This document shows, piece by piece, positions 993-16,256 of a stretch of DNA of 20,691 nt. The DNA comes from Candidatus Heimdallarchaeota archaeon. GTDB taxonomy: Archaea; Asgardarchaeota; Heimdallarchaeia; Heimdallarchaeales; Heimdallarchaeaceae. The translations under genes and the position numbers were made by a program. Numbering within the stretch: position 1 is the first letter of the stretch; every line of letters begins with the position of its first letter. The stretch lies in the NCBI GenBank assembly GCA_030668875.1, contig DAOVER010000050.1:1-20691 (forward strand). Reading direction: 5' to 3'. Below the pieces are notes generated by a model, which worked only from the letters and a program-made list of their open reading frames with translations, made no database searches and had not been told where the DNA came from.

Positions 993-2324
993 ATGCCGAA
1001 CGAAAATAGCAACAATATTGAACAAGATGTTGAGTTATCCAAAGAGCTTGGGCTAAAAGAAGCTCTTGGTATTGCCGTTGGTGCTCTAATTGGAGGGGGA
1101 GTCTTCAGTGTCCTTGGATTAGTCATATATGAATCAGGTCCAGCTGCTTTCTTGGCATTTTTATTAGCTGGTGTAGTTAGTACTTTTACAGCTTACAGTT
1201 ACGTTCATTTAGCACTCAAGCATCCAAGAGCAGGAGGGGCTTTCATCTATGTTCAAGAAGCTTTCAAGAAGAAATGGTTATCAGGTTCTCTTGGTATTCT
1301 CCTTTGGTTTGGTTATAGCTTTTCTGTGGGTCTCTATGCTATGACATTTGGTAGATATTTAGGTGCTGTGTGGCCTCTTTTTGGAGGATATGGTCATAGT
1401 TTTTCTTCAAATCTCTATGCAATGACTTTTGGTAGAGCCTTAAGCGAGGTATCCTTTTTTGGAGAACAATTATTGCCATTTTTTGGAATTACTATTTCTG
1501 CTTTTATTTTTCAGATTCTTAGTATTTTAATTTTCATTGGATTAAATATGATTGGAGTAAAGGAATCCAGCCGAGCTCAAAACATATTAGTTCTCATCAA
1601 AGTTGCAATATTAGTTCTTTATATCATAGTAGGCTTTTTTGCAATTGAAAGTTCAAACTTCGTTCCCTTCTTACCTAAAGGTGCTTTTCCTCTAATCGCA
1701 AGTTCTGTTCTTATTTTTGTTTCAATGGAAGGTTTTGAGATTTTATCCAATTCTGTTGAAGAAATGAAAAATCCAGAAAGAGACCTCAAGCTAGGCATGT
1801 ACATCTCAATAATTATAGTTCTAATCCTATACATCGCTGTAGCAGTAATAACGGTTGGAGTATTAGGTAAAGATGATAATTTGAAGGATATTGGAGAGGT
1901 TATTCTTACATATTCAGCTAGTAAGTTTTTAGGGGTTGCAGGAGCTGGTATCATGGCTTTTGCAGCTATTATCTCCGCAGCTTCAGCTATAAATGCAACA
2001 TTACTAGGGTCTTCTAGACTTTCTTACATGCTTTCTCATGAAAGAATTATACCTAAGGCAATTGCAAAAATCAGCCCAAAAACTCGAGTTCCAATGAGAG
2101 CTATAGCTCTTTCAGGAATAATGAGTATTATCATTGTGTTCCTATTCCAACTAGATGTCGTAGCAATGGTCGCAAGTATAATTTTCATGGCAATTTTTGC
2201 AGCTGTAAATATATCAGCAATAAAACTACTAGAAAAGAAGAAGAAAATTCCTAGCATAATTGGCGTCGTTTTAATAATCATTTACTGGGGGATTTGGATC
2301 TCAAATCTAATAATGACTGGATGA
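993..2324 (+). CDS. APC-family amino acid/polyamine permease
   Basis: About 12 hydrophobic segments; TM1 motif GALIGGGVF, HPRAGGAFIY loop, TM6 FVSMEGFE..SNSVEEMKNPERD. Confidence 0.9.
   Translation: MPNENSNNIEQDVELSKELGLKEALGIAVGALIGGGVFSVLGLVIYESGPAAFLAFLLAGVVSTFTAYSYVHLALKHPRAGGAFIYVQEAFKKKWLSGSLGILLWFGYSFSVGLYAMTFGRYLGAVWPLFGGYGHSFSSNLYAMTFGRALSEVSFFGEQLLPFFGITISAFIFQILSILIFIGLNMIGVKESSRAQNILVLIKVAILVLYIIVGFFAIESSNFVPFLPKGAFPLIASSVLIFVSMEGFEILSNSVEEMKNPERDLKLGMYISIIIVLILYIAVAVITVGVLGKDDNLKDIGEVILTYSASKFLGVAGAGIMAFAAIISAASAINATLLGSSRLSYMLSHERIIPKAIAKISPKTRVPMRAIALSGIMSIIIVFLFQLDVVAMVASIIFMAIFAAVNISAIKLLEKKKKIPSIIGVVLIIIYWGIWISNLIMTG
1311..1472 (+). repeat. In-frame 81-nt (27-aa) tandem duplication inside the permease
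   Basis: GYSFSVGLYAMTFGRYLGAVWPLFGGY (1311-1391) is followed by GHSFSSNLYAMTFGRALSEVSFFGEQL (1392-1472). DNA ctctatgc.atgac.tttggtaga recurs at 1332 and 1413. Confidence 0.85.
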
Positions 2325-2382
2325 ATCCTAAATTTTCCTTTTATTGGGATATTTTAAATATTTGAGACCTCTCCGTTCACTA

Positions 2383-2886
2383 ATGTTTAACCTATCAGAA
2401 TATTACAAATTAATTGAAAAAGATAGAAATGATTACTTTAAACTGTTCAAATTAGCACCGAAGGAAGTCTTTCACAAATCTTTTACTGAAGACACGTGGT
2501 CTGTTGAACTCATTTTTCGACATAATCTTTCAGTTCTAAATTGGTTCAAAACTCTTGTTCCTAACATCGATTTCGAAGAAAGTACGTTGGCAACTAAATA
2601 TGGTGAAAAAGCTGAAGATTCTTTTTCTTTAGAGGAAATTGAGAAAGAATTCCACAGATTATCATCCGTCATCGCTGAAGGTATCGCAAAAATGACTGCT
2701 GAGGAAGAAGATGAAATTTTCAAATCACCCTATGGAGACAGTCCAAGATACAAGAGAATCTCTGGATTATTAAATCATGAAAGTAACCATTTGGGCCAAG
2801 TTGCGTGGATTTTCAAGAGATTAACCGGATGGACAGATCAAGATATTAGAGAGAAATTATACGGAGTTCCTAAGAAAGAAGATTAA
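2383..2886 (+). CDS. DinB-superfamily protein
   Basis: WSVELIFRH and LNHESNHLGQ give the three-His metal site of DinB/YfiT-like proteins. ATG 2383 is preferred over TTG 2344 in the ORF track. Confidence 0.75.
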   Translation: MFNLSEYYKLIEKDRNDYFKLFKLAPKEVFHKSFTEDTWSVELIFRHNLSVLNWFKTLVPNIDFEESTLATKYGEKAEDSFSLEEIEKEFHRLSSVIAEGIAKMTAEEEDEIFKSPYGDSPRYKRISGLLNHESNHLGQVAWIFKRLTGWTDQDIREKLYGVPKKED

Positions 2887-2898
2887 GGTTGAAATATC

Positions 2899-3165
2899 AT
2901 GTCTAGAAAACAGAAAGTAACGATAGAAGTGGTTGACATTTTGCTTACTGAGAAATGCAATTATGACCATAAAATAGGCGATAAATTTGATTATCCAATT
3001 GAAACAGGGAAGATATGTACTGCAGCTTTGCATTCAATTTATCCATATGCTTTAGGTATACAATTTGGTGGAAGCTTTCCTTGGGAAGAAGATTCTGATA
3101 GTGTTACTGTTTGCTGTCCTGACTATAAAAATCCGGTAGTTTTTAAAATTACAAGAGAGACATAG
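2899..3165 (+). CDS. TIGR04076-family small Cys-containing protein
   Basis: 88 aa with pattern C.YDHKIGDKF...KIC..AL.SIYP...GG.FPW......VCCPD..NPVVFKI.R, recognised from memory as this family. Confidence 0.75.
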   Translation: MSRKQKVTIEVVDILLTEKCNYDHKIGDKFDYPIETGKICTAALHSIYPYALGIQFGGSFPWEEDSDSVTVCCPDYKNPVVFKITRET

Positions 3166-3230
3166 AAATCTTTAGTAATTGTTTCATTAGATGGTTTACA
3201 ATAATTTATACAGAATCAGGAAAGATACGA

Positions 3231-3845
3231 ATGAATATTGATTACAGAACCCTTCCAGTAATCATTCTAGCAGCTGGAGACTCAAAAAGAATGGGAGAGC
3301 CGAAAGGGCTCCTTAACTATCAAGGCAAACCTTTCCTCGTCCATCAAATCGAACAATTGTCTGAGATAGGTTTATCTGAGATTATCGTTGTACTTGGAAA
3401 AGATTTCAAACTCTACCACGATAAGTTCCCTGAACTTATTGAAGTAGAATTTACAACAAATCCATCTCCTGAGAAAGGACAATTTTCATCCTTACAATGT
3501 GGATTGCAAAAGATACAGTCTAGAGAAGTATCAGGAGTTTTCATTTTTCCAATTGATGTTCCTTGCCCAGACAGAGAAGTATGGGAAGAGCTAGTAAATG
3601 AATTGAGTTTATCAGATAGTGCAGTCACAATCCCTGAATATCAGGGTAAAAAGGGTCATCCTGTTCTTATTTCAAGGGAGTTTATGCAGCATCTTATTTC
3701 CTGTGGATCTGATTCTCGTCTAGATTTCGAAATCTATAAACAAATTGACCTTAAGAAAGCAAAGATTATATCTGTAAATGATAAAAATATTACACGGAAC
3801 CTCAATACACCTGAAGATTGGAAAGAATATGAGGAATTAAAATGA
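3231..3845 (+). CDS. mocA: Molybdenum cofactor cytidylyltransferase (MocA-like nucleotidyltransferase)
   Basis: ILAAG.SKRMG..KGLL, GQFSSLQCGL, GHPVL, NLNTPEDW. Its stop overlaps the xdh start (ATGA at 3842-3845). Confidence 0.8.
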   Translation: MNIDYRTLPVIILAAGDSKRMGEPKGLLNYQGKPFLVHQIEQLSEIGLSEIIVVLGKDFKLYHDKFPELIEVEFTTNPSPEKGQFSSLQCGLQKIQSREVSGVFIFPIDVPCPDREVWEELVNELSLSDSAVTIPEYQGKKGHPVLISREFMQHLISCGSDSRLDFEIYKQIDLKKAKIISVNDKNITRNLNTPEDWKEYEELK

Positions 3846-6475
3846 ATGTAACATTTACTCTCAATGGGAAAGAAACCACTGTTAGTTATGAAGAAGGAAT
3901 GAGTGTCCTTGATTTACTTAGAGAGGTTTGTCATATTAAAAGTTGTAAGGATGGTTGTTCAGGTCAAGGTACTTGTGGAGCTTGTACTGTTTTAATTAAT
4001 GGTAGAGCAATGGTCTCCTGTAGGCAGAAACCAGCATCTATTGAGGGTAAAGAAATAATCACTGTTGAAGGACTTGACAAAATTGAACAAGACATTCTAT
4101 CAAAATCTTTTGTTAAAGAAGGAGCTATACAATGTGGATTTTGTACTCCTGGACTTGTTCTTCGAATTAAATCTTTTCTTGATCAACATCCTACATCTAC
4201 AAGAGAGGAAAAAGCTAAAGCTATAACTGGAAATCTCTGCAGATGTACTGGTTACCAACGAATTCTTGATGCTATGAAAACAGCTGAAGAACATTGGAAT
4301 CCAAAGGACGATGACATATCAGGACCACCTCGAAGAAGCGAATTCTTTGGAGAAAAATATGGTCTAAAAAGGGAGTATGAACCGAAAAAGAATGGAGTAG
4401 GTTCTAATGCTCATCGTTATCGTGGAGTGGATATGGCTCTAGGTAGAAAACCCTATATCGCAGATATGGAAATGGATGAAATGCTTCATGGAGCTTTGTT
4501 GCTAAGTGAGCATCCACGTTCCAAAGTAATCAAAATTGACACATCAAAAGCTAAGGAAGCTTGTGGAGTGATAGAGACATTTACAGCAAAAGATGTACCC
4601 GGGAAACGGATGATTGGTCATATCATACCAGATTGGCCCATTTTTGTTTCTGAAGGTGAATCTACAAGATATGTAGGTGATGTGCTTGCAATGATTGTAG
4701 CTGATTCCATGGTTCATGCCCGAGCAGCTCTTGAGAAAATAAAGGTTGATTATGAAATACTTGAACCAATAATTGATCCAGAAAAAGCTCTATTACCTAC
4801 TACAGAAAAAATACATGAAAAAGGCAATTTACTAGGTCACACATTCTTTGGAAGAGGAGATGTTAAGAGTGCTTTGGAGAAATCCAAATACGTGATAAAA
4901 CAGCGTTTTAAAACTCAACGAATTGAACATGCTTACATGGAAGTAGAAAGTTGCTTAGCATTCCCAACAGAAAAGGGGGTTCATCTATATAGTCAGGGAC
5001 AAGGAGTTCATGAAGATCAAAGACAGATTGCAGAAGCACTCGGATTAAAAAAAGAACTAGTTATCGTTGAACTTGTTTCTAATGGTGGTGCTTTTGGTGG
5101 AAAGGAGGATCTTACATGTCAAGCACAGACAGCTATGGCTTCCATGATTTTGAAGAAACCTGTAAAAACAGTTCTTACAAGAGAACAGTCTCTTCTCATG
5201 AGCGTTAAGAGACACCCAATGACTATGGATTATGAAGTAGGAGCAGATGAAAATGGAAAGCTAACAGCTGTAAAACTCCGTTTAATAGCTGATTCAGGAG
5301 CTTATGCATCTGTTGGAGCAAAAGTTGCAGAACGCGCAGCAGGACATTGTTGTGGGCCATACTTCGTTCCTAATGTTGATGTAGATGCAAAAGCTGTTTA
5401 TACAAATAATCCCGCTTGTGGAGCGATGCGAGGTTTCGGAGTCAATCAAACCTCCTTTGCAATTGAAACATGTCTTAATATGATTGTCGAGAAGATGAAG
5501 AAAGATGGGATTAAAATTGATGATTATGATATAAGAGAAAAAAATATTCTTAGAGAAGGTCAAAGGTTTGCAACAGGTCAAAAGATGACAAAGACCATCA
5601 ATGGAATGCAACAATGTCTAGATGCTGTTAAAGACATCTATAAGAATTCTAAAGATCCAATTGGGATAGCTTGTGGGATAAAAAATACAGGAATTGGTAA
5701 CGGTTTGGAGGATACTGGGAGGGTTCTCATAAAAGTCCTTGAAAATGAACAACTTGAAATCTTAACGGGATTTACAGAGATGGGACAAGGATTGTTTACT
5801 GTTCTTACCCAAGTTGTAACAGAAGTTACTGACATCTCCCCCAAACAGATGAATGTCAAATCAATTAGCTATCCAAAAACCAAATGTGGAATGACAACTG
5901 CTTCTAGAGGTACAGCTTTGGATACTATGGCAGCAAAATTTGCAGCAGAAAAACTTGCAATTGCTCTTCAAACAAAGCCCCTAAAAGATTTAGCAGGTAA
6001 AGAGTTCCATGGAGAATATATTAGTAATTTTACAGTCAAACCAGGTACACAAACTGATAATCCTATAACGCATTTAGCGTTCAGTCACGCTGTTCAAATG
6101 GCTATCTTAAATGAAGAAGGTAAAATTACAAAAATGATAGCGGCTCATGATGTTGGAAAAGCTATCAACCCCATGGCATGTGCTGGACAGTTTGAGGGGG
6201 GAATTCACATGGGTCTAGGGCATACACTTTCGGAAGATTTCCCAACAACAAATGGAGTGCCAGACTCACTAAGAATGGGAGATATTCAAATAATCAAAGC
6301 AAAGGATATGCCAGAGGTTGAGGTAATTCTAATAGAAGAACCTGAGGAAGTAGGAGGGTTTGGATCAAAAGGAGTGGGAGAAATTGGTCTTGTACCAACA
6401 GCTGGAGCAGTTGCAGGAGCTCTATACCAATATGATGGTAAATGGCGTTTCGAGCTACCAATAGCAAGAAAATAA
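3842..6475 (+). CDS. xdh: Xanthine-oxidase-family molybdopterin oxidoreductase with fused 2x[2Fe-2S] domain; resembles the selenium-dependent xanthine dehydrogenase family
   Basis: Fe-S motifs CKDGCSGQGTCGAC, QCGFC, NLCRCTGY. Mo-domain motifs GGAFGGKED, GAMRGFG, TTASR, GQFEGG, KGVGE (catalytic Glu). The length (877 aa) and segments such as CGIKNTGIGNGLEDTGR and NPITHLAFS match the single-chain Se-XDH type. Confidence 0.85.
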   Translation: MNVTFTLNGKETTVSYEEGMSVLDLLREVCHIKSCKDGCSGQGTCGACTVLINGRAMVSCRQKPASIEGKEIITVEGLDKIEQDILSKSFVKEGAIQCGFCTPGLVLRIKSFLDQHPTSTREEKAKAITGNLCRCTGYQRILDAMKTAEEHWNPKDDDISGPPRRSEFFGEKYGLKREYEPKKNGVGSNAHRYRGVDMALGRKPYIADMEMDEMLHGALLLSEHPRSKVIKIDTSKAKEACGVIETFTAKDVPGKRMIGHIIPDWPIFVSEGESTRYVGDVLAMIVADSMVHARAALEKIKVDYEILEPIIDPEKALLPTTEKIHEKGNLLGHTFFGRGDVKSALEKSKYVIKQRFKTQRIEHAYMEVESCLAFPTEKGVHLYSQGQGVHEDQRQIAEALGLKKELVIVELVSNGGAFGGKEDLTCQAQTAMASMILKKPVKTVLTREQSLLMSVKRHPMTMDYEVGADENGKLTAVKLRLIADSGAYASVGAKVAERAAGHCCGPYFVPNVDVDAKAVYTNNPACGAMRGFGVNQTSFAIETCLNMIVEKMKKDGIKIDDYDIREKNILREGQRFATGQKMTKTINGMQQCLDAVKDIYKNSKDPIGIACGIKNTGIGNGLEDTGRVLIKVLENEQLEILTGFTEMGQGLFTVLTQVVTEVTDISPKQMNVKSISYPKTKCGMTTASRGTALDTMAAKFAAEKLAIALQTKPLKDLAGKEFHGEYISNFTVKPGTQTDNPITHLAFSHAVQMAILNEEGKITKMIAAHDVGKAINPMACAGQFEGGIHMGLGHTLSEDFPTTNGVPDSLRMGDIQIIKAKDMPEVEVILIEEPEEVGGFGSKGVGEIGLVPTAGAVAGALYQYDGKWRFELPIARK

Positions 6476-6512
6476 TTAAGATGATAAAAAGAAAGAAGAA
6501 ATAGTAAAAAAG

Positions 6513-6550
6513 TTAAGGAACAAACCTTGTTCCTGTTTCACCCTTTAAAG
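6513..6550 (-). repeat. Distal copy of the carbamate kinase 3' end (LKGETGTRFVP*)
   Basis: 6514-6550 matches 9922-9958 at 36/37 nt and the live gene (11649-11685) at 33/37 nt. It ends in TAA 38 bp from the xdh stop. Confidence 0.9.
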
Positions 6551-6814
6551 GTCGTTTGTTGATCGTTTAAGATCTAGGTAAAACCATCATAGTGTGTTGA
6601 GAGCGAATTAGTCACTCTTACTTATTATAAACTTAAACTTACAAAATCAACTAATAAACATTATAAAAACACAACAAAATGCTAATTACTAATGGAAGTG
6701 AGGTTTTGTACAATATCACTTTAAGTATATTTTAAAGTTAAATAGTTAAAAGAATTCATTGTAAATAAGTAAAGGAGCTAGCTCAACCTTAAACTAAATT
6801 CATAAGTGATAAAA

Positions 6815-7924
6815 ATGAATGTAAAGAAAAACGGAAAAATAAATGTATTATTAATTCTCGTAATACTAACACTTTCCTTAATCCCAATCACGAATTATGT
6901 CTCTGCCCGTTACAACTGGGTTGAATGGGATGGATTTGTATACAACGATTGGGGTAATGGTACGGCTGGTGTTACAGTGAGATTAAAATATGGTAGTACT
7001 ACATTAGATTCTGATGTTACAGGCTCAAATGGTTATTACTATATTAAGGAATATGTAGATAACGCCTACAGGTACACATTAACAGCTTCAATGAACTCAA
7101 ATTGGACAACTCAACAATATGATAATCTAATAGGAAGACCCGAAGGTAGTGGTCCTTGGAGATATAATTTTGATCTATATTATGTCGTAAAATGGGCAGT
7201 CATTGTTGGAATTGAAGATTACTATCCTCTTGGTAACGCACAATTTAGTGATAACGATGCTGATACGTGAAATGCCCACTTCACAAACGAAACTGGTTTA
7301 GATTTTGACAATGTAGAAGTCTTGAAAAATAATGCTGCTACAGAAAGTGCAATAAAAACCAAACTAAATACAATGGTTTCTGGTGCAGATGGTGGAGACA
7401 TTATAGCTTTCATCTTCTCAGGTCATGGTTATAAGTATGATGAAGGAGAAAGTTACGCCCTAAGTGCCTACGAAGCAGATCCTGGTAATCCAGACAACGA
7501 GGGATTTTTCAATGATACAGAATTAGCAACGATAATGGAAAACTCAATCGCAGAAAGAGTGTTTTTCTTCTTTGATTGCTGTAATGCTTCTGGCATGTAT
7601 AACGAACTAGAATTACTTAATAACTCAGATACCTTTTTCCTAGCCGCAGCTACTCGCGACGATGAAACCTCATGGTGGGATGTTGATAAAGAATTTAGAT
7701 GCTGGACACAGTGTTTTCTGCACTATTCTTGGAATGGAAATTCTGAACGTGGATCTTCAGGTTCAATAACTGCAGATTTCATAGATATTTTCGATGATGC
7801 ATTGTTTTGGTATAATTATTATGTAGGGTCAGTTAATTACTACAACGCAAACCAAACTCCAACAAAATTGAGTGACTATGGAAATGGATTCTGTTTATCA
7901 ATAGAGGGCATCACACCACAATAA
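6815..7924 (+). pseudogene. Secreted caspase/metacaspase-like (peptidase C14) protein interrupted by an in-frame TGA at 7268-7270
   Basis: ORF-track ORFs 6806-7270 and 7322-7924 share a frame, and the sequence between them is open. The joined product has a signal peptide, a beta-rich N-terminal domain, KWAVIVGIEDY, FIFSGHG (His) and FFDCCNASG (Cys). Confidence 0.8.
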
Positions 7925-7952
7925 ATAAAATAACAAAGGGGATAAGTATGCA

Positions 7953-9617
7953 ATGAATAAATTATATCAAATGTTTGTTTTAGTTATATTAATAAGCTCA
8001 ACTGAGATTACTGTTCAGAATATAATTGTTTCAGAAAGTACTACTTATCCCTATTCTCTTTCTTACTTAGACTCATTACCAATTATAATAACAAATGATT
8101 CAAATTTCACAGATTATGGATTTCCAGGTAATGGAACTCCTCTTGATCCATATAGGATTGAAAATTTAAATATTACAACTACAGAAGAAAAAGGAATTTA
8201 TGTTTTCAATACAACTAAACATTTTATAATTCAGAATTGTTTTGTAGATGCTTATAGGGGCGGTATAGTTATAGATTCTGTAAGGAAAGAAACAACTATA
8301 ATAGAAGACAACATTTGTGTGGGAAATTTTGCAACAGGCATTCGAATCAATCATTCACCAGGCACGAAAATAATTAACAATACTTGCAACTTTAATAGCT
8401 TTGTTGGTATTCATGTTAGGAACTCTTATGAATCACAAATTGAAAACAATCGGTGTATTCAGGATGTTTTAGGGATATTTGTAGACCGAAGTGAAGCGTG
8501 TTTGATTAATAATAACACTTGCAATTCAAATAGTAGGGGGGGGATTGTTGTGGAAGAATCACCTTTATCGTACGTAGCTGATAATAGATGTTATGAAAAT
8601 ACTTACCATGGGGGCATAAGTTTATATCAATCTAACAAATCAGTTGTAGTAAATAACTTGTGTATTGACAATGTGCAGAACAATATAGCGCTTCATGAAT
8701 CCAATGATTCTTATGTACTAAACAACTATTGTTCAGGTAGAGGAGTTGGAATTGTTGTAGCAGATGGAGGGAATGTAACTATTGATTGCAATAATTGTTC
8801 TGGAAATGCAATTGGTATTCTTATAAATGATGCTGAAAAGTCTAAAATCACCAATAATATTCTGTATAGAAGTGGTTTTATATTCTATGAACTCAACAAA
8901 AATGACTATAATACTTACATCGTCTTAAATAACACAGTAAATGACAAAAAGTTTGGCTATTTTGCAAGTTTAAAAGACCTAACAATTACTAAGTCAATTT
9001 ATGGTCAACTTTTCTTTGCAGATTGTTCTAATGTTCGAATAAAGAATCAATATCTTTGTGATACAATTACAGGAATCACTATGTTTTATTGCTCTAATAG
9101 TTTGATTCAGAGTAGTGTCTGTTCTAATAATTGGAATTATGGAATCAATATAGTTGGTTCCACAAACATTGAGATTATTAATAATAATTGTAGTTTAAAC
9201 TATGTAGGAATAGTATTAGAAAACTCTGACAAAAATGAACTTAGCTATAATTTTCTACAAAACAACATTGTTTGGGGTGTAGTTTTAGACGCATACTCAT
9301 CTAACAACTCTGTTCATCATAATTCTTTCTACGATAATAATCAGCATTTTGGAACATCTCAAGCTAAAGATGATGGTCAAAATAACAAATGGTACGATGA
9401 AGAAACAAAAGAGGGTAACTACTGGTCTGACTATTCTACTGTAGTTGGTAGTTATTATATAGATGGATTTGCGGGTTCACAAGATCTCTATCCTCTCTCT
9501 GAACCCCCAATCTACAAGAACAATTTAGTTTATTATTCATATCTTGCTTTAGTACTAGTAATTCCTTTAGCACTATATGGTTATTTCAAGTTTATATCTA
9601 GACGAAAAAGAAAATGA
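7953..9617 (+). CDS. NosD/right-handed parallel beta-helix surface protein with C-terminal membrane anchor
   Basis: N-terminal hydrophobic stretch, many GI.(I/V)..S....I.NN.C repeats, GNYWSDY, and C-terminal TM helix followed by RRKRK. Confidence 0.88.
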   Translation: MNKLYQMFVLVILISSTEITVQNIIVSESTTYPYSLSYLDSLPIIITNDSNFTDYGFPGNGTPLDPYRIENLNITTTEEKGIYVFNTTKHFIIQNCFVDAYRGGIVIDSVRKETTIIEDNICVGNFATGIRINHSPGTKIINNTCNFNSFVGIHVRNSYESQIENNRCIQDVLGIFVDRSEACLINNNTCNSNSRGGIVVEESPLSYVADNRCYENTYHGGISLYQSNKSVVVNNLCIDNVQNNIALHESNDSYVLNNYCSGRGVGIVVADGGNVTIDCNNCSGNAIGILINDAEKSKITNNILYRSGFIFYELNKNDYNTYIVLNNTVNDKKFGYFASLKDLTITKSIYGQLFFADCSNVRIKNQYLCDTITGITMFYCSNSLIQSSVCSNNWNYGINIVGSTNIEIINNNCSLNYVGIVLENSDKNELSYNFLQNNIVWGVVLDAYSSNNSVHHNSFYDNNQHFGTSQAKDDGQNNKWYDEETKEGNYWSDYSTVVGSYYIDGFAGSQDLYPLSEPPIYKNNLVYYSYLALVLVIPLALYGYFKFISRRKRK

Positions 9618-9797
9618 TTCTAATTTATGGGACTATAGGATTAATTAGATTTCGGTAAAGAGCTTAGTTCTAGTTTAGAACTTTCAATGCCCAATACTAG
9701 CAGCATTCCATCAAACCTATTACTTTGTTTCTATGTGATTAGGAATAAAATAGTTCATAGTGCTTATAAAGAAAAGATGATGGATGTAGTTAAACAA

Positions 9798-10011
9798 ATC
9801 ATGGGAAAATGTTCAAACAAATGCTTTTATTCTTTCTGAAAGAAGGCGTCAATTATCTTTTATCTCTCTATCCACAGTTTCTTTTCCTTTTATAGTAACT
9901 TGCTGCATATTAATACTGCACTAAGGAACAAACCTAGTTCCTGTTTCACCCTTTAAAGCCCGACCGATGTTTTCAGGATTGGTAACTAAGGCTTCTTTAC
10001 CACCCTGCTCT
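9798..10011. repeat. 214-bp direct repeat, copy 2: displaced carbamate kinase 3' end (9921-10011) plus 123-bp downstream arm
   Basis: Ungapped alignment to 11525-11738 (offset 1727) shows 20 mismatches in 214 nt by manual count. The minus strand reads EQGGKEALVTNPENIGRALKGETGTRFVP*. Confidence 0.95.
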
Positions 10012-10150
10012 GGAAAACGATTTACAATAAAAGAATCTAGTAAGAAGGTTTTATTATAACATAAATAAGAAAAGGAATTATTAGTAAATCCACAATGTTA
10101 TGGTCTCACACACTCCAACTCAGCTTACAGCTGAAATGTTCTGTCTTTTA

Positions 10151-11299
10151 CTAACTAGTTCTTTTTCTCTTTAATACAATTGCCACAACAGTTAACATCA
10201 CGATACTAAGTAAGTAACTAATGGAAAAGGATGTGTCTGTTGGGGTTCCATTTGTAGGAATGATTACATTATTGAAAGTCAAGGAATAAATATTCAATGA
10301 AGTTAGGTTGAAGAAGTCCGTTACAATTATTTCTAACGTATGAACTCCATTAGAGTATTTAGTTGTATCTATTGAAATGGCTAACAAACCAGTAAAATCA
10401 CCTATATTATTTTCTTCATAAGATAATATTTCCTCTCCATCCAGGTAAACAGAAATACTGGTTAAATTGGATATTGACCGCCAAACCTCAAAGTATCCCA
10501 TAATTTGACCTGAATGAGTTCCACCTACAAAATTCGCATAAGGATCTGGCACAACTGTAGGAGGATTAATGGCTCTATAGAAATAGAACAGTATTGTATT
10601 TGAACCATTTGGAAGAGTGGAATTGATATCTAATCTGACCCTATGTACAGTGAAATTTTCACTTAATGGATTTATAAGGATACTAAAAGTGTTAGTATCT
10701 ATCCAAGTTATATTTGTGGGTCCTAGATCATAAGTTGTATATGAAGGTCCAACAAGTGCTTCATAGCTAGCATTTAAGGTGAAAGTATCATTTAATTCAT
10801 TTATTTTGAATTGTAATAAAACTGGATCATCGTGTTTATAACATGGTGTTGGATAATTGGATGCACTAGTATGTGTCAACCAATAATTGAGAAGTATTGC
10901 ATTGTATGAAAAGTCTGCATTTACAATAGGGTAAAAACTAAAGATAGCTGTTTCAGTGATTTCAGTATTGTTAAAGGAGGCTACTCCAGTTAGGTTATAC
11001 TTTCCTCTTCTGGTCAGAGGTAAGATTGTATTATTTTGAATGTCAGAGATTACTGAATCATTTAAGTAAAATGTTAGGGATGCAGATAGTTCTGATAAAT
11101 AATAACTCAAAGTTATGTTTTCATCATAAATCGAATTATTTTCAGGAGAAATAAAATAGAAACTAAAATCATTATTTATTGTATTTACTCCTACTTGTTC
11201 AACTCCACAATACGATTCCTTATTACTGTTAATTAGAGTAGATGCACAAAACAATACTGCAATTAACCATACAAATTTTTTCTTAAATTGTACCCTCAT
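10151..11299 (-). CDS. Secreted/surface protein with Ig-like beta domains and C-terminal TM anchor
   Basis: Signal peptide (KKKFVWLIAVLFCAST); FISPENNS and IDTTKYSNGVHTLEIIVTD are Big-like motifs; many N-x-S/T sequons; Thr/Pro linker, TM helix, KRKR tail. Confidence 0.75.
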   Translation of the reverse strand: MRVQFKKKFVWLIAVLFCASTLINSNKESYCGVEQVGVNTINNDFSFYFISPENNSIYDENITLSYYLSELSASLTFYLNDSVISDIQNNTILPLTRRGKYNLTGVASFNNTEITETAIFSFYPIVNADFSYNAILLNYWLTHTSASNYPTPCYKHDDPVLLQFKINELNDTFTLNASYEALVGPSYTTYDLGPTNITWIDTNTFSILINPLSENFTVHRVRLDINSTLPNGSNTILFYFYRAINPPTVVPDPYANFVGGTHSGQIMGYFEVWRSISNLTSISVYLDGEEILSYEENNIGDFTGLLAISIDTTKYSNGVHTLEIIVTDFFNLTSLNIYSLTFNNVIIPTNGTPTDTSFSISYLLSIVMLTVVAIVLKRKRTS

Positions 11300-11524
11300 T
11301 CTATTAAAAAATAAACACTTTTTTATATTTAAACTTATTTAAATAAATTAAAAATCATAAGATATATCATAATAGTAAACATTAGAAAGTCCTTTTATCA
11401 CATATGAAGTTATTTGTTTGATATTGATATGTTCTATGAGCTTTAATTAGCTCTTTCAAAGTCTCATTTAAATGACATTTCTACTTTATCACAATTAAGA
11501 GCTTATAATTGCGCATTAATCAAG

Positions 11525-11738
11525 ATCATGGAAAAATGTTTAAACAGATGCTTTTTTTCTTTCTGAAAGAAGGTGTCAATTAACTATTATCTCTCTATCC
11601 ACAGTTTATTTTCCTTTTATAGTAACTTGCTGCATATTAATACTGCACTAAGGAACAATCCTGGTTCCTGTTTTACCCTTCAAAGCCCGACTGATGTTTT
11701 CAGGATTAGTGATCAGAGCTTCTTTACCACCCTGTTCT
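11525..11738. repeat. 214-bp direct repeat, copy 1: live carbamate kinase 3' end plus 123-bp downstream arm
   Basis: Homologous to 9798-10011 as described for copy 2. Confidence 0.95.
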
Positions 11739-12604
11739 AAAAATTGAACGATAGCTTTAATTTTCGGTTCCATCGAACCTTTGGCAAAGTGAGTTCCTTC
11801 CTCCAGGTACTTTTTTGCCTCAGCAACGGTGAGCTGATCTAACTCCACTTGATCAGGTTTACCAAAATTTAAAGAAACTTTTTCAACAGCAGTTGAAATT
11901 AAAAGCATATCCGCGTTAATTTCATTGGCCAGGAACGCAGATGCAAAATCTTTGTCAATTACCGCTGCAGTCCCCTCTACTCCTTGATCGGTCTCAATAA
12001 CTGGTATTCCTCCACCACCCACAGTAATTGTAACTGTTCCGGAATCAATTAGCGTTTTGATTGCTTCCAATTCCATTATTTCCACAGGTAACGGGGAAGC
12101 TACCACTCGACGCCATCCGCGACCAGCATCTTCAACTACATTCCAACCTAATTCCTCTTTCCTTTTTTCCGCCTCTTTTACTTCCATGAATGTTCCAATA
12201 GGTTTAGCAGGTTTCTGGAAAGCAGGATCATTCGGGTCTACCCGGACTTGGGTAATCACTGTCGCGGCCGGTTTGTTAATTCCCCTTTTTTTAAGCTCAT
12301 TTTGGATATTCTGCTGTAGAGCATAACCGATAGCGCCCTGGCTGTCAGCTCCGCAAACATCAAGGGGTAGTTCATGCATACCTTCCACCTTATGGGCAAT
12401 TTCACTTCGTCGTAAAATGAATCCAACTTGGGGTCCATTGCCATGTCCTATTGCAATATCCCAGCCTTCTTCAATCATATCTACCAGATGAATTGCAGTT
12501 TCCTGGGTAGCTTTGTATTGATCTTGTACAGTTTGATGCTGCTTGGATTTGATGAGTGAGTTTCCACCAATTGCAACAACTGCTACTTTTTTCTGTTTTG
12601 ACAT
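11648..12604 (-). CDS. arcC: Carbamate kinase
   Basis: VVAIGGNSL, HGNGPQVG, KPIG, RRVVASPLP, GGGGIPV, AVIDKD, FAKGSMEPKI. Confidence 0.97.
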   Translation of the reverse strand: MSKQKKVAVVAIGGNSLIKSKQHQTVQDQYKATQETAIHLVDMIEEGWDIAIGHGNGPQVGFILRRSEIAHKVEGMHELPLDVCGADSQGAIGYALQQNIQNELKKRGINKPAATVITQVRVDPNDPAFQKPAKPIGTFMEVKEAEKRKEELGWNVVEDAGRGWRRVVASPLPVEIMELEAIKTLIDSGTVTITVGGGGIPVIETDQGVEGTAAVIDKDFASAFLANEINADMLLISTAVEKVSLNFGKPDQVELDQLTVAEAKKYLEEGTHFAKGSMEPKIKAIVQFLEQGGKEALITNPENISRALKGKTGTRIVP

Positions 12605-12613
12605 TTGTATCGC

Positions 12614-13594
12614 CTACCACATTGTTAGCGCCATTATTGCTTTCTGCGCATGCATCCTATTTTCAGCTTGATCAAAAACCACTGATTGGGGACCATCCAT
12701 CACCTGACTGGTGACCTCTACATCGCGATCAGCAGGAAGAGGGTGCATATAAATCGCATCCTTGTCAGCTAGGGCCATTTTATTCGAATCAGTAATCCAA
12801 TGCTTATATTGGTCTTGGATCTTTTTACCTTCTTCTGGATCTTTTGTTGTGAGCAAGGGTCCCCAAGATTTCGCGTAAACGATATCCGCGTCTTTGAAAC
12901 CTTCTTCCATAGAGTCGACAACCTCAAATTTGCTGCCAAATTTGTCAGCTTGTTCTTGGGCTTGTTTCATGATTTCCGGCATCAACTTAAATTCAGGTGG
13001 ATGTGCTAGTGTGACGTCCAACCCAAACCGAGGCATCTGTAGAATCAAAGACTGTGGGACAGAAATTGGTTTCAGGTACGAGGAAGCATACGCCCAACTA
13101 ACTACCATCTTCTTTCCTCTTAAATCCCGACCTTTTTTCTCCATTATAGTCATTATATCAGCCAGACATTGGTGAGGATGATAAATATCGCACTGCATAT
13201 TTAAAACAGGTGAGCGTGAGGCTGATGCCACGTTGTTTATGTACTTGTTTCCTATTCCCCAATCACAATGTCGAATGGCAATACCATCATAATACCTTCC
13301 AAGGATTTCTCCTAATTCTTTTTCTGTGTCTCCATGAGAAACCTGTGTTGTGCGGCTCTCCAAAAATGTGGCTTGTCCTCCCAGCTGCGCCATTCCTGAC
13401 TCAAAAGAAGCCCGAGTACGTGTGCTGGAGAAGAAGAATAGCATACAGAGAGTTTTATCCAGAAGCAAAGCGTGTCTTTCACCCAGTGCTCGTTTTTTCT
13501 TAAGATCCCAGGCTACTTCTAAGACAGTTTCCACTTCTTCTTTTGTAAAATCTAGGTCGCCGATTAAGTCACGACCTCGTAAATCAGATATCAT
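12614..13594 (-). CDS. Transcarbamylase of the YgeW/N-acetylornithine carbamoyltransferase class (not a canonical OTCase)
   Basis: Carbamoyl-phosphate motifs SSTRTR and HPHQ; SWAYASSYLKPISVPQS loop and YAKSWG resemble YgeW/AOTCase; MHPLPADR. The OTCase SMG motif is absent. Confidence 0.8.
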   Translation of the reverse strand: MISDLRGRDLIGDLDFTKEEVETVLEVAWDLKKKRALGERHALLLDKTLCMLFFFSSTRTRASFESGMAQLGGQATFLESRTTQVSHGDTEKELGEILGRYYDGIAIRHCDWGIGNKYINNVASASRSPVLNMQCDIYHPHQCLADIMTIMEKKGRDLRGKKMVVSWAYASSYLKPISVPQSLILQMPRFGLDVTLAHPPEFKLMPEIMKQAQEQADKFGSKFEVVDSMEEGFKDADIVYAKSWGPLLTTKDPEEGKKIQDQYKHWITDSNKMALADKDAIYMHPLPADRDVEVTSQVMDGPQSVVFDQAENRMHAQKAIMALTMW

Positions 13595-13603
13595 TATGAT
13601 CTC

Positions 13604-14557
13604 CTACTCCTCTGCACCTAAAACCAGAGCTAGAAGGGCCATGCGCATTACAACGCCGTTGTGACCTTCCTTCCAGTAACGCGCCCATCGGGTCTGATCC
13701 ACATCGGGAGGAATTTCATCCATTCTGGGTAAGGAGTGGAGTAATACTGCGTCTGATTTTGCTTTGGTTTCTAAAAGTTCTTTGGTGATTTGGAATTCGG
13801 GGGGGGTTAGTGCAACGTCACCATCTCTTTCATCACGTGATTTGGTGTAGTCAGGCTGGACTACCGGCTCAACTAGGATCACATCAGCATCTGCGATAAC
13901 TGTGCGAACATCATCACCTTCGGTAAAGTTCAGACCGTTACGTTTGAAATCTTCCCGGTATTCATCAGGAAGTTCCATGTCTTTTGGTGATATGAAAGTG
14001 ATTGGGCAGTCGAATTGTGTTAAAGCATGACCAAGGGAGTGCATGGTACGCATTCTCATATCACCTACAGCTACCCACTTTAATCCGTCTAAGTGACCTT
14101 TTTCTTTATAAATAGTATAGAGATCAGTGAGGATTTGTGTAGGATGCTCTCCCCAACCATCTCCACCATTAATAATAGGGACACTTACCCATTTAGCAGC
14201 TTCTTTGGGAGCGCCTTTCTGGAAATGCCTCATAACGATGACGTCTCCGTAATTTTCGAGCATCTTAAAGGTGTCCTTGATGGATTCCATATAGAAGTCA
14301 CCTGCGCGGGTCATTTTAGCGTCAGAAAATCCTGTCACCTTACCACCCAATCGAAGCATGGCTGTTTCGTGGGCTAAACGAGTCCTGGTTGAAGGCTGGT
14401 AAAAAGCAGTTACCATTACTTTTTCTTTCAATAAATCTACATTTTTTCTATTGCGAGCTATTGGGGCTAATTTATCTGCAACCTCAAATATTCGCTCAAA
14501 TTCATGGCGTTCAAAATCCTTTAATGATATAATGTCACGCCCTACAAAACTTCTCAT
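13604..14557 (-). CDS. Aspartate-carbamoyltransferase-like transcarbamylase with altered acceptor site
   Basis: FYQPSTRTRL, MRH, NGGDGWGEHPTQ, RTMHSL, HSLPRMDEI. SD AAGGAG lies upstream, and 9-nt gaps separate it from the next two genes. Confidence 0.8.
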   Translation of the reverse strand: MRSFVGRDIISLKDFERHEFERIFEVADKLAPIARNRKNVDLLKEKVMVTAFYQPSTRTRLAHETAMLRLGGKVTGFSDAKMTRAGDFYMESIKDTFKMLENYGDVIVMRHFQKGAPKEAAKWVSVPIINGGDGWGEHPTQILTDLYTIYKEKGHLDGLKWVAVGDMRMRTMHSLGHALTQFDCPITFISPKDMELPDEYREDFKRNGLNFTEGDDVRTVIADADVILVEPVVQPDYTKSRDERDGDVALTPPEFQITKELLETKAKSDAVLLHSLPRMDEIPPDVDQTRWARYWKEGHNGVVMRMALLALVLGAEE

Positions 14558-14830
14558 AATCTTTCTCCTTTATAGTTTTGACTAATTTCTTTAAAACTAA
14601 TCTTATTGCTCTGCCAATACTAATTTTTCTTTTTAAACCTTTTTTTATAATAATATTTTATCCTGTTGTCATATAAACTACAATTGTATTAGTTTAATTG
14701 GACAGTCTTGAGTAAATATTACGGGAGTTTTATTAGAATCTCTAGTTAATGATGCTAATCATGGAATAAGTTTAGTTGTGAACAATCATAACCTGTTATG
14801 GAGCACATTGAAAGACTCAAAGAACTCCTT

Positions 14831-15364
14831 TCAGGTTTCGATTACATCACCAACATATCTAAATTGTTTAGGCCAGAACAGGAATGCTTTTGACCGATCA
14901 TAATCTTTAGCTAAATGAGCAGTTACTACTTCACCAACAAACCACGTATGCGTTCCCCCTAAATCAAGAGTATGAACAACCTTACATTCTAGATTAACAG
15001 GACATTCTTTTATTAGATATGAACTTATTTTTGAAGCTTTTACAGGTGTAAGACCTGTTGCTTTAAATTTATCTTCAACATCTCTACCGGAAATTTTTCC
15101 GATATGCTTCACATCATCTATAAGTTCAGTTGTGGGGATATTTATTGAATAGTCCTTTACTTCTTTTATCAGTTCAAATGAATATCTTTTGGGAACAATT
15201 CCAATCATAATTAAAGGAGGATTATCAAATGAAACCATACTAATTGCAGCTATAGTTATAAGATTTTTACCAATACACCCAATAACAATAGGAAAGCCTG
15301 GTAAAGATAAAATACCCTTCTTACCTGAAACAATTTCTTTGTTAGAATTATCCATTTCATTCAT
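14831..15364 (-). CDS. Flavin reductase family protein (DIM6/NTAB)
   Basis: SMVSFDNPPLIMIGI, IKECPVNLECKV, GTHTWFVGEV. Confidence 0.88.
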   Translation of the reverse strand: MNEMDNSNKEIVSGKKGILSLPGFPIVIGCIGKNLITIAAISMVSFDNPPLIMIGIVPKRYSFELIKEVKDYSINIPTTELIDDVKHIGKISGRDVEDKFKATGLTPVKASKISSYLIKECPVNLECKVVHTLDLGGTHTWFVGEVVTAHLAKDYDRSKAFLFWPKQFRYVGDVIET

Positions 15365-15430
15365 TATGAACCCTTTTCTTTTGTGTTAATAAGTATATTC
15401 TCAAAAAAAATTTGTTTTATTTCTTTTCTA

Positions 15431-15452
15431 AAAAGTCAATATTAATATGAGA
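15431..15452 (+). promoter_or_regulatory. Copy of a recurrent promoter-like motif (AAAAGTCAATATTAATATGAGA)
   Basis: 19/22 match to the motif at 16217-16238; about 70 nt upstream of the gene starting at 15521. Confidence 0.5.
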
Positions 15453-15520
15453 ATATCCATTACAAAAAATTTATTTTTGTAATCATTTATAAGTAGATTA
15501 ATATAAATTGGTAGATAGTA

Positions 15521-15952
15521 ATGAGTTCTGAGAATCTGACTGAAAAACCAACAAAAAAAAGGAATATCAAGAGAATACTACTTAAGGCATTTATTATTTT
15601 AGAAATTCTTGCTTTCATATCTGTATTTGTTATGTTTATCCTTGCTGTGGCTACACCTGATTTCGATCAAAGCTTTGTTTTTGCAGAGATAGGTGGGATT
15701 ATAATTGGAAGTATGGTAGGTTCTTTAATGCTATTTATGGCAATATTTGGTATACGTTCCATTTTAAAAGCAAAAAATTTAGGATTTGGTACCAATATTA
15801 CCACGTCTGATTTTTCCCAAACTGATAAACTTGAACCATATAAAACTACCAAACAAAGGAATTGGTATTGTGAGTATTGTGGATATGAAGTAACAAGAAA
15901 AGAAAGAGAATGCCCTAAATGTGGAGGACCAATAATAAGAGATAAAAAATAA
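15521..15952 (+). CDS. Two-TM membrane protein with C-terminal zinc ribbon
   Basis: Two hydrophobic helices followed by WYCEYC...ECPKCG. Confidence 0.75.
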   Translation: MSSENLTEKPTKKRNIKRILLKAFIILEILAFISVFVMFILAVATPDFDQSFVFAEIGGIIIGSMVGSLMLFMAIFGIRSILKAKNLGFGTNITTSDFSQTDKLEPYKTTKQRNWYCEYCGYEVTRKERECPKCGGPIIRDKK

Positions 15953-16110
15953 AATTAACTCTTAACTATTTCTCGTTTCTTGACTATTTACTCTTCTAAT
16001 TATACCTGACAATTAGGGAAAAACTAATTTTTCTATATTGAATATACTCACAATAAATTGGAATTACATGATTGAAACTAAAAAGACTAGATGATAGCTT
16101 CTTATAGTAA

Positions 16111-16238: not shown

Positions 16239-16256
16239 GTATGATATAATCAAACC

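Follow-up and report, generated by a model that had tools for sequence, protein, structure and literature searches.

Repeated arcC gene ends around stacked surface-protein genes at the xdh-arcC junction of a Heimdallarchaeaceae archaeon

How does the 3' end of one carbamate kinase gene, arcC, come to stand three times at a single place on an archaeal chromosome, with surface-protein genes lying between the copies and no integrase among them? The question is raised by a 20,691-nt stretch of DNA, here called the window, from Candidatus Heimdallarchaeota archaeon (Heimdallarchaeaceae; assembly GCA_030668875.1, contig DAOVER010000050.1, positions 1-20,691 of the forward strand), whose host genome, denoted G000, is an uncultured-archaeon MAG of 3.23 Mb and 92% completeness. 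An earlier note on this DNA had suggested two successive insertions at the end of arcC and, perhaps, a homology-guided or trans-mobilised system for exchanging cell-surface genes. We propose that ordinary homologous recombination, and not an integrase, probably adds accessory genes between xdh and arcC, since each cassette came with a foreign arcC end of its own.

Three arcC ends and the DNA between them

The triplicate arcC end is a real feature of the window, and a repeat search recovered the three copies claimed before, all in the same, minus-strand sense: the live end (11648-11743) and two displaced ones (Table 1). The coordinates first given hold to within a few bases, except that the middle tail has 96 nt and not 91, and that the repeat runs 123 nt past the stop codon. 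We call these 123 nt D where they lie 3' of the live arcC, and D' where they lie beside the middle tail. Together with the final 96 nt of arcC, stop codon included, they form a direct repeat of 219 nt (9798-10016 vs. 11525-11743) with 90% identity and 22 differences, 8 of them in the 123 nt of D and 14 in the 96 nt of the tail, and a genome-wide search with this repeat found no further occurrence in the 3.23 Mb outside the window. The third copy lies 38 nt from the xdh stop (6475) and is 97% identical to the middle copy over 6514-6550; the stop codon extends its span to 6513-6550, over which it is 94.7% identical to the middle copy and 86.8% identical both to the live tail and to the arcC end of the closest relative, G021. 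The tail copies are mutually 85-95% identical, with differences throughout, and the arcC end also holds a small palindrome, GGAAC...GTTCC.

Table 1. Features of the xdh-arcC region, in window coordinates
Feature	Position	Strand	Basis or remark
Left flanking gene, conserved and convergent with arcC: xdh-type molybdopterin oxidoreductase, 877 aa	3842-6475	+	Pfam Fer2_2, Ald_Xan_dh_C, MoCoBD_1, MoCoBD_2
Native xdh-arcC spacer of the empty site	6476-6512	.	Colinear with G021 junction; window 6323-6550 95.6% identical
Displaced arcC end, copy 3, 38 nt, TAA stop	6513-6550	-	3' end and flank native-type, 5' part like copy 2
Cassette A, with a 3' flank after its last gene	6551-9797	+	Pfam, translations
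Stretch of 143 nt in cassette A, missing from L111 allele	6551-6693		
Cassette A, signal-peptide/beta-sandwich/caspase-like gene	6806-7924	+	Pfam
Cassette A, NosD/beta-helix protein with C-terminal membrane anchor	7953-9617	+	Pfam
D', copy of the 123 nt after the arcC stop	9798-9920	-	Repeat comparison
Displaced arcC end, copy 2, 96 nt, TAG stop, of foreign origin	9921-10016	-	Synonymous-site analysis
Cassette B	10017-11524	-	
Cassette B, 3' spacer	10017-10150		
Cassette B, gene of membrane-anchored tandem Ig/FN3-like protein, 382 aa	10151-11299	-	AlphaFold2 model, Foldseek
Cassette B, AT-rich promoter region	11300-11524		
D, 123 nt 3' of live arcC, arrived with inserted DNA	11525-11647	-	Missing from empty-site genomes
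Live carbamate kinase arcC, 318 aa, intact	11648-12604	-	Pfam AA_kinase
Pair of carbamoyltransferase paralogues, in the conserved right-hand context upstream of arcC and outside the insertion	12614-14557	-	Pfam OTCace_N, OTCace

The inserts measure 3.2 kb (A) and 1.5 kb (B). Pfam agrees with the caspase-like and NosD genes first noticed in cassette A, a gene pair that is present as two tandem copies in G019:C22. The caspase-like gene of the window is broken by a change of TGG to TGA at 7268-7270. The protein of cassette B had been described as an Ig-like surface protein, and AlphaFold2 modelling with Foldseek comparison likewise gave tandem Ig/FN3-like beta-sandwiches, with a predicted N-terminal helix and a predicted C-terminal membrane helix. 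Its promoter-plus-gene unit of ~1.2 kb recurs at 88-93% identity in unrelated contexts (G010:C179 and G010:C23). TnpB-like ORFs adjoin homologues of B only in other contexts (L082, L108).

The junction in related genomes

In 16 same-genus genomes, xdh orthologues adjoin arcC, and in 12 of the 16 the two genes are convergent with a gap of 19-113 nt; they are adjacent in contig L109 too. The window, therefore, holds an insertion, of 5,135 bp, both sides of which are matched by G021 with a 37-nt overlap to both window copies. This agrees with the convergent, near-adjacent xdh and arcC that had been taken as the ancestral state. Upstream of arcC, the carbamoyltransferase pair is syntenic in G021, G001, G023, and G019.

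Comparison of this junction across genomes and metagenome contigs gave at least seven alleles, which contradicts the outcome that the earlier note had named as fatal to its reading, namely relatives with one and the same arrangement, no empty site, and no variation in cargo. One allele carries A only (L111, with xdh, 11 nt, then cassette A, and no copy 3) and another B only (L106, with xdh, an arcC tail of ~63 nt, then B, at a tail junction unlike the 96-nt one of the window), while further alleles carry unrelated cargo, such as a nucleotidyltransferase (G020), a membrane protein (G014), an SBP_bac_5 protein (G007), and a GNAT-like protein (G009, L112, and L113). The xdh end, instead of the arcC end, is used in G007 and L109, and the G007 cargo is flanked by a 109-nt duplicate of the xdh tail with 91.7% identity and differences mostly in third positions. 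In this Heimdallarchaeaceae genus, the xdh-arcC gap is thus a hot spot of gene gain. Over 1,818 nt, cassette A and its copy in L111 share 97% identity, against just 88.8% in the flanking xdh region, and this disparity shows that the cassette has crossed between species.

Could the array itself be an assembly chimera, with an A-bearing strain and a B-bearing strain joined at the D/tail repeat that they share? The source is a MAG, the A-only and B-only alleles exist elsewhere, and both repeats share an identical 50 nt (9882-9931 = 11609-11658) at which every unitig breaks, leaving a graph in which B as a free circle of 1,727 bp looks the same as integrated B. We nevertheless give such a chimera very little credence, because contigs assembled independently from single runs cross xdh/copy 3/A, A/D', and D'/copy 2/B/D without differences; three runs cover the xdh/copy 3/A junction, and the path from D' through copy 2, the spacer junction, and B to D is contiguous in three runs, again with no differences, so that the displaced tail of B precedes D-type DNA and not the xdh spacer that stands there in the B-only L106. 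Even with a wrong A-B link, a copy of the arcC tail would still bracket each cassette.

Origin of the arcC ends

A block free of mobility genes, lying between direct repeats and facing a one-copy empty site in relatives, resembles the insertion with long target duplication (Nobusato et al. 2000, Gene 259:99; Furuta et al. 2010, PMC2853133). Its definition asks for a one-copy empty site, direct repeats of >30 bp, an insert of <20 kb, and no mobility gene; the class was described for bacterial restriction-modification genes, with no archaeal case passing the screen, and its repeats hardly differ from one another or from the target, often overlapping a gene 3' end (Furuta et al. 2010, PMC2853133). 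The layout of the window, with its empty site in relatives, repeats of 38 and 219 nt, inserts below 20 kb, and no mobility gene, falls within that operational definition, as it would if the tail copies had been made in place from the resident target. Copies made in this way would, however, start identical, and the dead one would decay neutrally, whereas the middle and live tails are separated by 8.5 synonymous and 5.5 non-synonymous differences (pS 0.375, pN/pS 0.2; P=0.007 for the synonymous excess). This pS of 0.375 is that of the G000-G001 or G000-G012 distance, and the empty-site relative G021 stands at only 0.10. Differences that are mostly synonymous and at a between-species level show that the middle tail came from the working arcC of another lineage, rather than being copied in place, and the same purifying-selection pattern of the diverged repeats, which are 85-93% identical, means that the second copy was imported.

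The live arcC is chimeric. It shares 98% amino acid identity with G021 and is G021-like until ~20 nt before its end, where a G009-like end, a TAG stop, and G009-like downstream DNA take over, and copy 3 changes from a foreign-like to a native sequence, its 5' part resembling the middle copy and its TAA stop and downstream flank matching G021. The arcC-proximal 61 nt of D and D' are common to the arcC flank of G009 (95% identity for the D stretch); significant matches to D outside the window lie only beside arcC in G009, and D is not present in the empty-site genomes. The exact limit of the 38-nt repeat is the stop codon, where TAA and native spacer stand against TAG and D, and the repeat limits, whether the stop codon or the end of D, coincide with the loss of homology between alleles. 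Duplication in place is hard to reconcile with a live TAG stop and G009-like end against the TAA of copy 3 and G021, or with a repeat that ends precisely where donor-recipient homology ends, and we consider it highly improbable. The locus is best read as a heterologous form of insertion with long target duplication in an archaeon, unlike the described class in its diverged repeats, its stacked cassettes, and its surface-protein cargo.

No single simple reciprocal crossover point accounts for the informative sites of the 38-nt copies, and their pattern needs a conversion tract or an unsampled parent. As for the two successive insertions with arcC restored, the chimeric live gene supports the restoration, but the array may stem from recombination between existing A-type and B-type alleles, and not from two fresh insertions.

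Homologous crossover and competing routes

Campbell-type single-crossover integration (insertion-duplication, as with non-replicating plasmids) proceeds from circular DNA carrying a chromosomal segment. It would account for all the structural traits of the present locus, namely the duplication of exactly the segment shared by donor and recipient, the hybrid copies, and the target gene left intact where the segment takes in its end, and it further predicts reversibility through the repeats. The differences are that no plasmid or circle was observed here, that the homology is of 38-219 nt and ~10% diverged, and that the source would be chromosome fragments of a relative.

We put at roughly 65% the probability that imported fragments with a flank-gene end integrate at xdh-arcC by homologous crossover. 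Accessory genes, mostly encoding membrane-anchored surface proteins and each with its own promoter, would come on DNA of a related lineage that already bears cargo beside arcC, including a short donor arcC 3' end and the donor D where present. A single homologous, in-frame crossover inside the arcC stretch would join this DNA to the chromosome, either by Campbell-type integration of a circularised fragment or by unequal crossover between the displaced tail of one allele and the live tail of another. The product would be an intact arcC with a chimeric end, cargo added and not swapped, and a non-identical second tail behind the cargo. Repetition with further alleles would stack the cassettes, B and then A going away from arcC, and the direct repeats may later delete or excise a cassette, so that its presence or absence can vary. 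Crossover, circular intermediate, and order of events are the parts that we infer, and further points count against the crossover: a homology of 37 nt is short for homologous recombination, neither a circular nor a linear intermediate was observed, and the donor allele to be expected (arcC-D-B lacking the duplicate) was not found among the compared alleles.

Gene-end duplication is not specific to arcC. In G000, at least ten further loci show a second copy of a gene end, 0.7-9 kb from the first and 81-97% identical to it, and a comparison of 11 duplicated ends gave no common k-mer motif beyond chance. The G000:C10 insert includes part of the opposite-flank gene directly beside the near-flank duplicate, G010 and G021 having the simple allele without it, and this layout fits a fragment cut from another allele. 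Since the same signature recurs at these further loci and, elsewhere in the genus, on the xdh side, there is probably no dedicated system. Of the homology-guided or trans-mobilised exchange imagined before, the homology-guided option is favoured.

The repeated use of the arcC end, with tails of 38, ~63, and 96 nt, could also mean targeting. The repeat-flanked cassettes of Heimdallarchaeaceae might be enzyme-less mobile units, a homology-addressed system, that loop out as small circles (B, for example, as 1,727 bp), pass from cell to cell and between species, and re-insert at a homologue of the gene end they carry, possibly helped by an unrecognised host or trans factor. We regard this as unlikely, if conceivable; were it true, surface-protein repertoires would be kept in flux genus-wide.

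Tandem accretion of the ICE/CIME kind, as in the ICESt1/ICESt3 family at fda of Streptococcus thermophilus, needs a tyrosine integrase and identical att cores. The present locus is like it in its tandem elements, the att-like repeats between them, and the 3' end of a housekeeping gene, and some ICE/CIME elements are without an integrase; cassettes A and B could be such remnants or satellites, moved through an arcC 3' att site by a recombinase encoded elsewhere. A gene 3' end is what is duplicated at classical att sites, the arcC end was used at least three times and holds the palindrome, and G000, itself incomplete, has five serine recombinase genes (PF00239) elsewhere. We think this explanation improbable, however. 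The earlier observation that the cassettes carry no integrase was borne out by Pfam and an ORF survey, with no recombinase among ORFs of at least 40 aa in 6476-11650 and no transposase domain in either cassette. At the genome scale, the tyrosine type (PF00589) gave no match in G000, in three of five occupied-site genomes (G000, G007, and G009), or in 16 of 30 family genomes, one of them closed, and none of the serine recombinase genes lies inside or beside any of the inserts in G000. Repeat lengths and 5' boundaries vary (tails of 38, ~63, and 96 nt, the last with a further 123 nt) among copies only 85-95% identical, with no common core or fixed crossover point; G007 and L109 use the xdh end instead, and the other loci duplicate unrelated gene ends.

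Integron cassette arrays, including the integrase-less CALINs, stack promoter-poor or single-gene cassettes in one place, as cassettes are stacked here. Unlike those, the cassettes here have promoter regions of their own and are set apart by copies of the end of a host gene, and no inverted repeats at the cassette ends, attC-type imperfect palindromes, or IntI were found. Neither a TnpB or TnpA ORF nor an Rfam match, as sought for IS200/IS605-TnpB elements, was present in 6476-11650.

No known prokaryotes are more closely related to eukaryotes than the Heimdall-group Asgard archaea, and the xdh-arcC junction offers a dated, multi-allele example of foreign-gene uptake among Asgard archaea, with one slot and at least seven contents, where the scars (imported, codon-conserved ends of flank genes) record the route by which DNA entered. 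López-Pérez et al. 2014 (PMC4033161) describe how flexible genomic islands diversify in aquatic prokaryotes: homology in the conserved flanks drives a recombinational exchange of strain-varying, often cell-surface genes in a fixed slot between conserved genes, much as here, with the difference that a double crossover there replaces the allele, whereas at xdh-arcC a single or unequal crossover would add in tandem and leave flank-end scars. The scars at no fewer than ten other loci suggest a general, enzyme-independent way of gaining genes, often for the cell surface, by adding and not by swapping. If this general route holds true, duplicated gene ends could be used to count and date acquisitions in archaeal MAGs.

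The arcC end repeats and their assembly

In the window, which is an entire 20.7-kb contig of a 3.23-Mb MAG (G000; 92% complete, 99 contigs), a repeat search found a 219-nt direct repeat composed of the final 96 nt of the carbamate kinase gene arcC and of the 123 nt lying 3' of its stop (D), together with a third, short copy of the arcC end. Near-identical public proteins carry names that assign the MAG to Candidatus Heimdallarchaeaceae. The second copies of the tail and of D are called tail' and D', and the blocks between the copies cassettes A and B (see the table). No copy of the arcC-tail or D sequences was found elsewhere in the 3.23-Mb genome, and beyond the window D had a significant match only at the arcC of a related genome, G009, so that D was rejected as the end of a dispersed element. 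Rfam at E ≤ 0.1 gave no RNA family in the cassettes, and structured RNA was rejected there on this result; blastn and tblastx of the spacers (6551-6805, 9618-9797, 10017-10150 and 11300-11524) against the genome and all fetched loci were uninformative on their origin.

Features of the window and loci of G000 with duplicated gene ends (in a few cases gene starts)
Feature	Position	Strand	Remarks
xdh-type gene	3842-6475		convergent with arcC
Copy 3	6513-6550		last 38 nt of arcC, TAA stop; 38 nt from xdh stop; 6514-6550 in the repeat search
Cassette A	6551-9797		signal-peptide/beta-sandwich/caspase-like gene; NosD/beta-helix protein with C-terminal membrane anchor
D' and tail'	9798-9920, 9921-10016		219-nt repeat, 9798-10016
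Cassette B	10017-11524		single gene, 382-aa protein: N-terminal helix, tandem Ig/FN3-like beta-sandwiches, C-terminal membrane helix
D and live tail	11525-11647, 11648-11743		219-nt repeat, 11525-11743; 90% identity to the other copy
arcC, carbamate kinase	11648-12604	-	318 aa, full-length, C-terminus conserved
Conserved block	993-6475, 11648-14557		xdh-type oxidoreductase, carbamate kinase, two different carbamoyltransferases
G000 repeats, 81-92%	C15:12265-13119; C57:5350-6390; C66:3860-6557, 10266-11131
G000 repeats, 81-92%	C91:59412-63768; C95:82715-85014, 87834-97154; C29:23282-24480; C4:3542-7695

The assembly was compared with Logan contigs of one study, taken from three runs that include two possible source runs. 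These contigs run without differences over xdh, copy 3 and A (5737-7847), over A and D' (9028-9889), and over D', tail', spacer, B and D (9902-11638), and because they break only within a 50-nt stretch identical in both repeats (9882-9931 and 11609-11658), one link is unproven by unitigs and a free 1,727-bp circle of B is also compatible with them. The depth of the B contig is about 0.5-0.7 of that of its neighbours in the three runs (22.9 against 36-41, 9.5 against 17-20, and 20.7 against 25-33), a deficit taken as a hint only, given that contig depth is not copy number; some cells could be without B, or B could also be present as a circle. In sequencing run X3, a short contig joins 6511 to 11649 with the TAA-type stop, with only 30 letters on one side and 90% likeness; this joint would be an empty site, but its source may be a close relative instead of the same population, and it counts as a weak hint and not as primary evidence. 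A run of a second study gave, as a weak hint, the joint 6481 to 6694 that is also present in metagenome contig L111, while run X5 had no cover over B, which is not counted as evidence. Scanning JGI metagenomes with a pattern across the D/tail junction, chosen to tell D'-tail', D-live, D'-live and D-tail' apart, yielded 0 matches.

Empty sites, alternative cargo and mobile cassettes

The earlier note had proposed that cassettes were stacked at the 3' end of arcC on an ancestral arrangement in which xdh and arcC lay close and convergent. Orthologous xdh and arcC are adjacent and convergent in 16 genomes of the same genus, and the ancestral closeness is borne out by 12 of them, where the gap is just 19-113 nt and empty, and by the empty site of metagenome contig L109. 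The nearest relative is G021 (arcC 98% identical in amino acids, pS 0.10), whose junction aligns to window positions 6323-6550 (95.6%) and 11649-11801 (97.4%); since it matches both sides with an overlap of 37 nt, we read the window as holding a 5,135-bp insertion bracketed by the duplicated arcC end. The junctions of the remaining four genomes carry a 108-aa nucleotidyltransferase (G020), a 344-aa membrane protein (G014), a membrane-anchored SBP_bac_5 protein of 626 aa (G007), or a GNAT-like protein (G009, with a G009-like allele in metagenome contigs L112 and L113). In contig L111, xdh is followed after 11 nt by cassette A, and no arcC-tail copy is present; in contig L106, a spacer of 60 nt and about 63 nt of copied arcC tail separate xdh from cassette B. 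The opposite picture of a fixed arrangement, with neither empty sites nor variation in cargo, clearly fails, both having been found across genomes and contigs. A public look-up of the exact arcC protein returned only a 2.2-kb contig ending at arcC.

Two other explanations of the repeats were dropped. Leftover tandem arcC paralogues do not agree with the existence of empty sites and of single-cassette alleles, nor with the sharing of D downstream, and a C-terminal displacement of the Rhs/CDI type does not agree with displaced pieces that are a conserved gene end and not variable toxin tips with immunity genes.

The cassettes themselves have moved, to judge from their identities. Cassette A is 97% identical to that of L111 over 1,818 nt but the xdh regions only 88.8% over 5,095 nt, which indicates that A probably moved recently between species at the same locus; its gene pair is also present as two tandem copies in G019 and as a single copy at a different locus of G009. 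The B unit consists of a promoter region and a gene, about 1.2 kb in all, with homology extending from about 65 nt before the ATG to about 20 nt past the stop, and G010 has this unit in two unrelated contexts, at 88-93% identity. Because the xdh of L106 is 97.6% identical to that of the window and its B 89.6%, and because the arcC-tail junction beside B differs (about 63 nt in L106 vs. 96 nt in the window), the L106 allele points to an independent integration of B.

Several further observations concern the surroundings and the contents of this site. The junction upstream of arcC, towards the carbamoyltransferase gene, is variable too, with gaps of 0.7-2.3 kb in G004, G005, G008 and G015 (loci L045, L047, L048 and L088), and the G015 gap (L088, G015:C24, 2624-4949) contains a fragment related to the cassette B protein. 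Beyond arcC in the "empty" allele of L109, a G012-like ENA contig, lies a 193-nt copy (11935-12127, 89.6%) of the sequence that runs from the xdh end through the spacer into the first bases of the arcC end, and an ORF with an AbiJ_NTD4 domain extends into this copy, terminating at the stop codon copied from xdh. In cassette A, the caspase-like gene (6806-7924) is one frame with a signal peptide, a beta-sandwich and Peptidase_C14, cut by an in-frame TGA at 7268-7270, and its L111 copy (97% identical) has TGG (Trp) at that position and lacks the N-terminal part, so that decay of the gene seems to be under way in the two genomes; an intact 369-aa paralogue is found in G019. Homologues of the cassette B gene in two non-arcC contexts (L082:7451-9388, G010:C23; L108:2230-2520) are followed, about 85 nt past the stop, by a convergent ORF with a TnpB-type (Cas12f1-like TNB) domain, which is absent from the window. 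NosD/beta-helix surface proteins are greatly expanded in the family (62 matches in G000, up to 82 in G040) and are a repeated cargo of variable slots.

Origin of the tail copies and the recombinase census

Between the middle and live tails, 14 of 96 positions are different (8.5 changes synonymous, 5.5 non-synonymous), with pS 0.375, pN/pS 0.2 and a synonymous excess over neutral expectation (P=0.007), a divergence equal to that of whole arcC genes between species (pS 0.35-0.38 for G000 vs. G001 or G012, and only 0.10 for G021). Neither the extent of this divergence nor its codon-conserving pattern would be seen in a copy decaying in place, and it is because of both features that we infer a past of the middle tail inside the working arcC of another lineage, the tail copies having been imported, a result central to the mechanism. 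The live arcC is a mosaic, G021-like until about 20 nt before its end and then as at the G009 arcC, which shares its final 16 nt, the TAG stop and the next 61 nt downstream. Copy 3 is the opposite mosaic, with a 5' part like the middle copy and a TAA stop and flank that correspond to the native G021-type spacer. The stop codon is the exact boundary of the 38-nt repeat, as the far end of D is that of the 219-nt repeat, and at these points the likeness of donor and recipient stops. The same signature is seen on the xdh side in G007, where a copy of the last part of xdh, 109 nt long and 91.7% identical with most differences at third positions, brackets the cargo and stops just past the stop codon.

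Elsewhere in the genome, between gyrB and a MiaB-like radical-SAM gene, a free-standing 67-aa ORF (G000:C15:63062-63220; L011:1498-1701) has 43% identity to the C-terminal 54 residues of carbamate kinase, and at least 8 further genomes of the genus have similar fragments; the ORF may represent a small protein or a tail displaced long ago.

That the cassettes carry no integrase, as the earlier note had it, agrees with our census: domain and ORF searches found no recombinase- or transposase-like ORF in the insert region, and PF00589 (tyrosine recombinase) had no match in G000 (92% complete), the same search having matched 14 of 14 control genomes. PF00589 was likewise missing from 16 of 30 family genomes, among them one closed genome as well as G007 and G009, both with occupied sites, and none of the five serine recombinase genes of G000 adjoins an insert. 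As PF00589 is sporadic in the family (14 of 30 genomes) and one of two closed genomes is without it, a Xer-type core recombinase appears to be missing or too divergent for detection.

Gene-end duplications across the genome and the proposed route

Self-comparison of the whole G000 genome gave at least 10 more loci in which the last 36-240 nt of a gene are duplicated, 0.7-9 kb apart and at 81-97% identity, most repeats stopping no more than a few tens of nt from the stop codon. Several of the small inserts at the tabulated loci encode signal-peptide or membrane-anchored proteins or PIN/toxin-antitoxin-like genes. Among 11 duplicated gene ends, no k-mer rose above shuffled controls, and a common recombination motif was rejected. 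Contig C10 of G000 has a second stacked hot spot (11040-17076, L100), with an alpha/beta-hydrolase and a NosD/beta-helix surface protein of 663 aa as cargo. One conserved gene there ends at 12158, and its last 70 nt are found again at 14550-14619 (97%); immediately before this duplicate stand 67 nt copied from the end of the convergent gene opposite, and the NosD-type gene lies between the live tail and the duplicate copies. G010 and G021 have a simple allele there, with neither the NosD-type gene nor the duplicates. Such a far-flank piece beside a near-flank duplicate is expected if a circularised fragment of another allele crossed in through one flank, and it would equally come from two alleles joined end to end.

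As for known systems, the layout of the window falls under the operational definition of "insertion with long target duplication" (Nobusato 2000; Furuta 2010, PMC2853133). This class was set up on restriction-modification genes of bacteria whose repeats are near-identical, its mechanism was given as unknown, and no archaeal case survived its screen. The repeats are near-identical in that class and heterologous in the window, a difference that argues for homologous capture and not fill-in. The locus would work much like a Campbell-type insertion-duplication, whereas the likeness to ICE/CIME accretion and integron arrays is in outline only, because the recombinases and sites that define them were tested for and not found. 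Aloposons, elements with tandem giant genes at tRNA sites, were rejected as an explanation, since they are unrelated to the layout of the window; like the other Heimdallarchaeum elements of Wu et al. (2022, PMC8813620), they make use of tRNA sites and integrases. Our literature search found no description of such gene-end cassette capture in Asgard archaea.

We propose that DNA from a related lineage, already bearing cargo next to arcC and carrying the donor's arcC end, would enter the cell, where a single homologous in-frame crossover inside the arcC end would put the cargo behind a still full-length arcC. The incoming piece could be a circularised fragment, or the event could be an unequal crossover of the displaced tail of one allele with the live tail of another; under either route, a second, foreign tail would remain behind the cargo. 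The array of the window could be derived by more than one route: a B-type unit (96-nt tail, D, B and spacer) would cross into an A-bearing chromosome, or two alleles would recombine, one of B type such as L106 through its displaced tail and one of A type such as L111 through its live tail. The informative sites of the 38-nt copies are incompatible with one reciprocal crossover point; either a short conversion tract or a parent outside the sampled genomes has to be assumed for them.

In summary, the array is real and well documented, and its reading as cassette accretion at the 3' end of arcC, first put forward in the earlier note, is upheld. The duplicated-end signature is not specific to arcC, and its mechanism is most likely general recombination, not a new machine.
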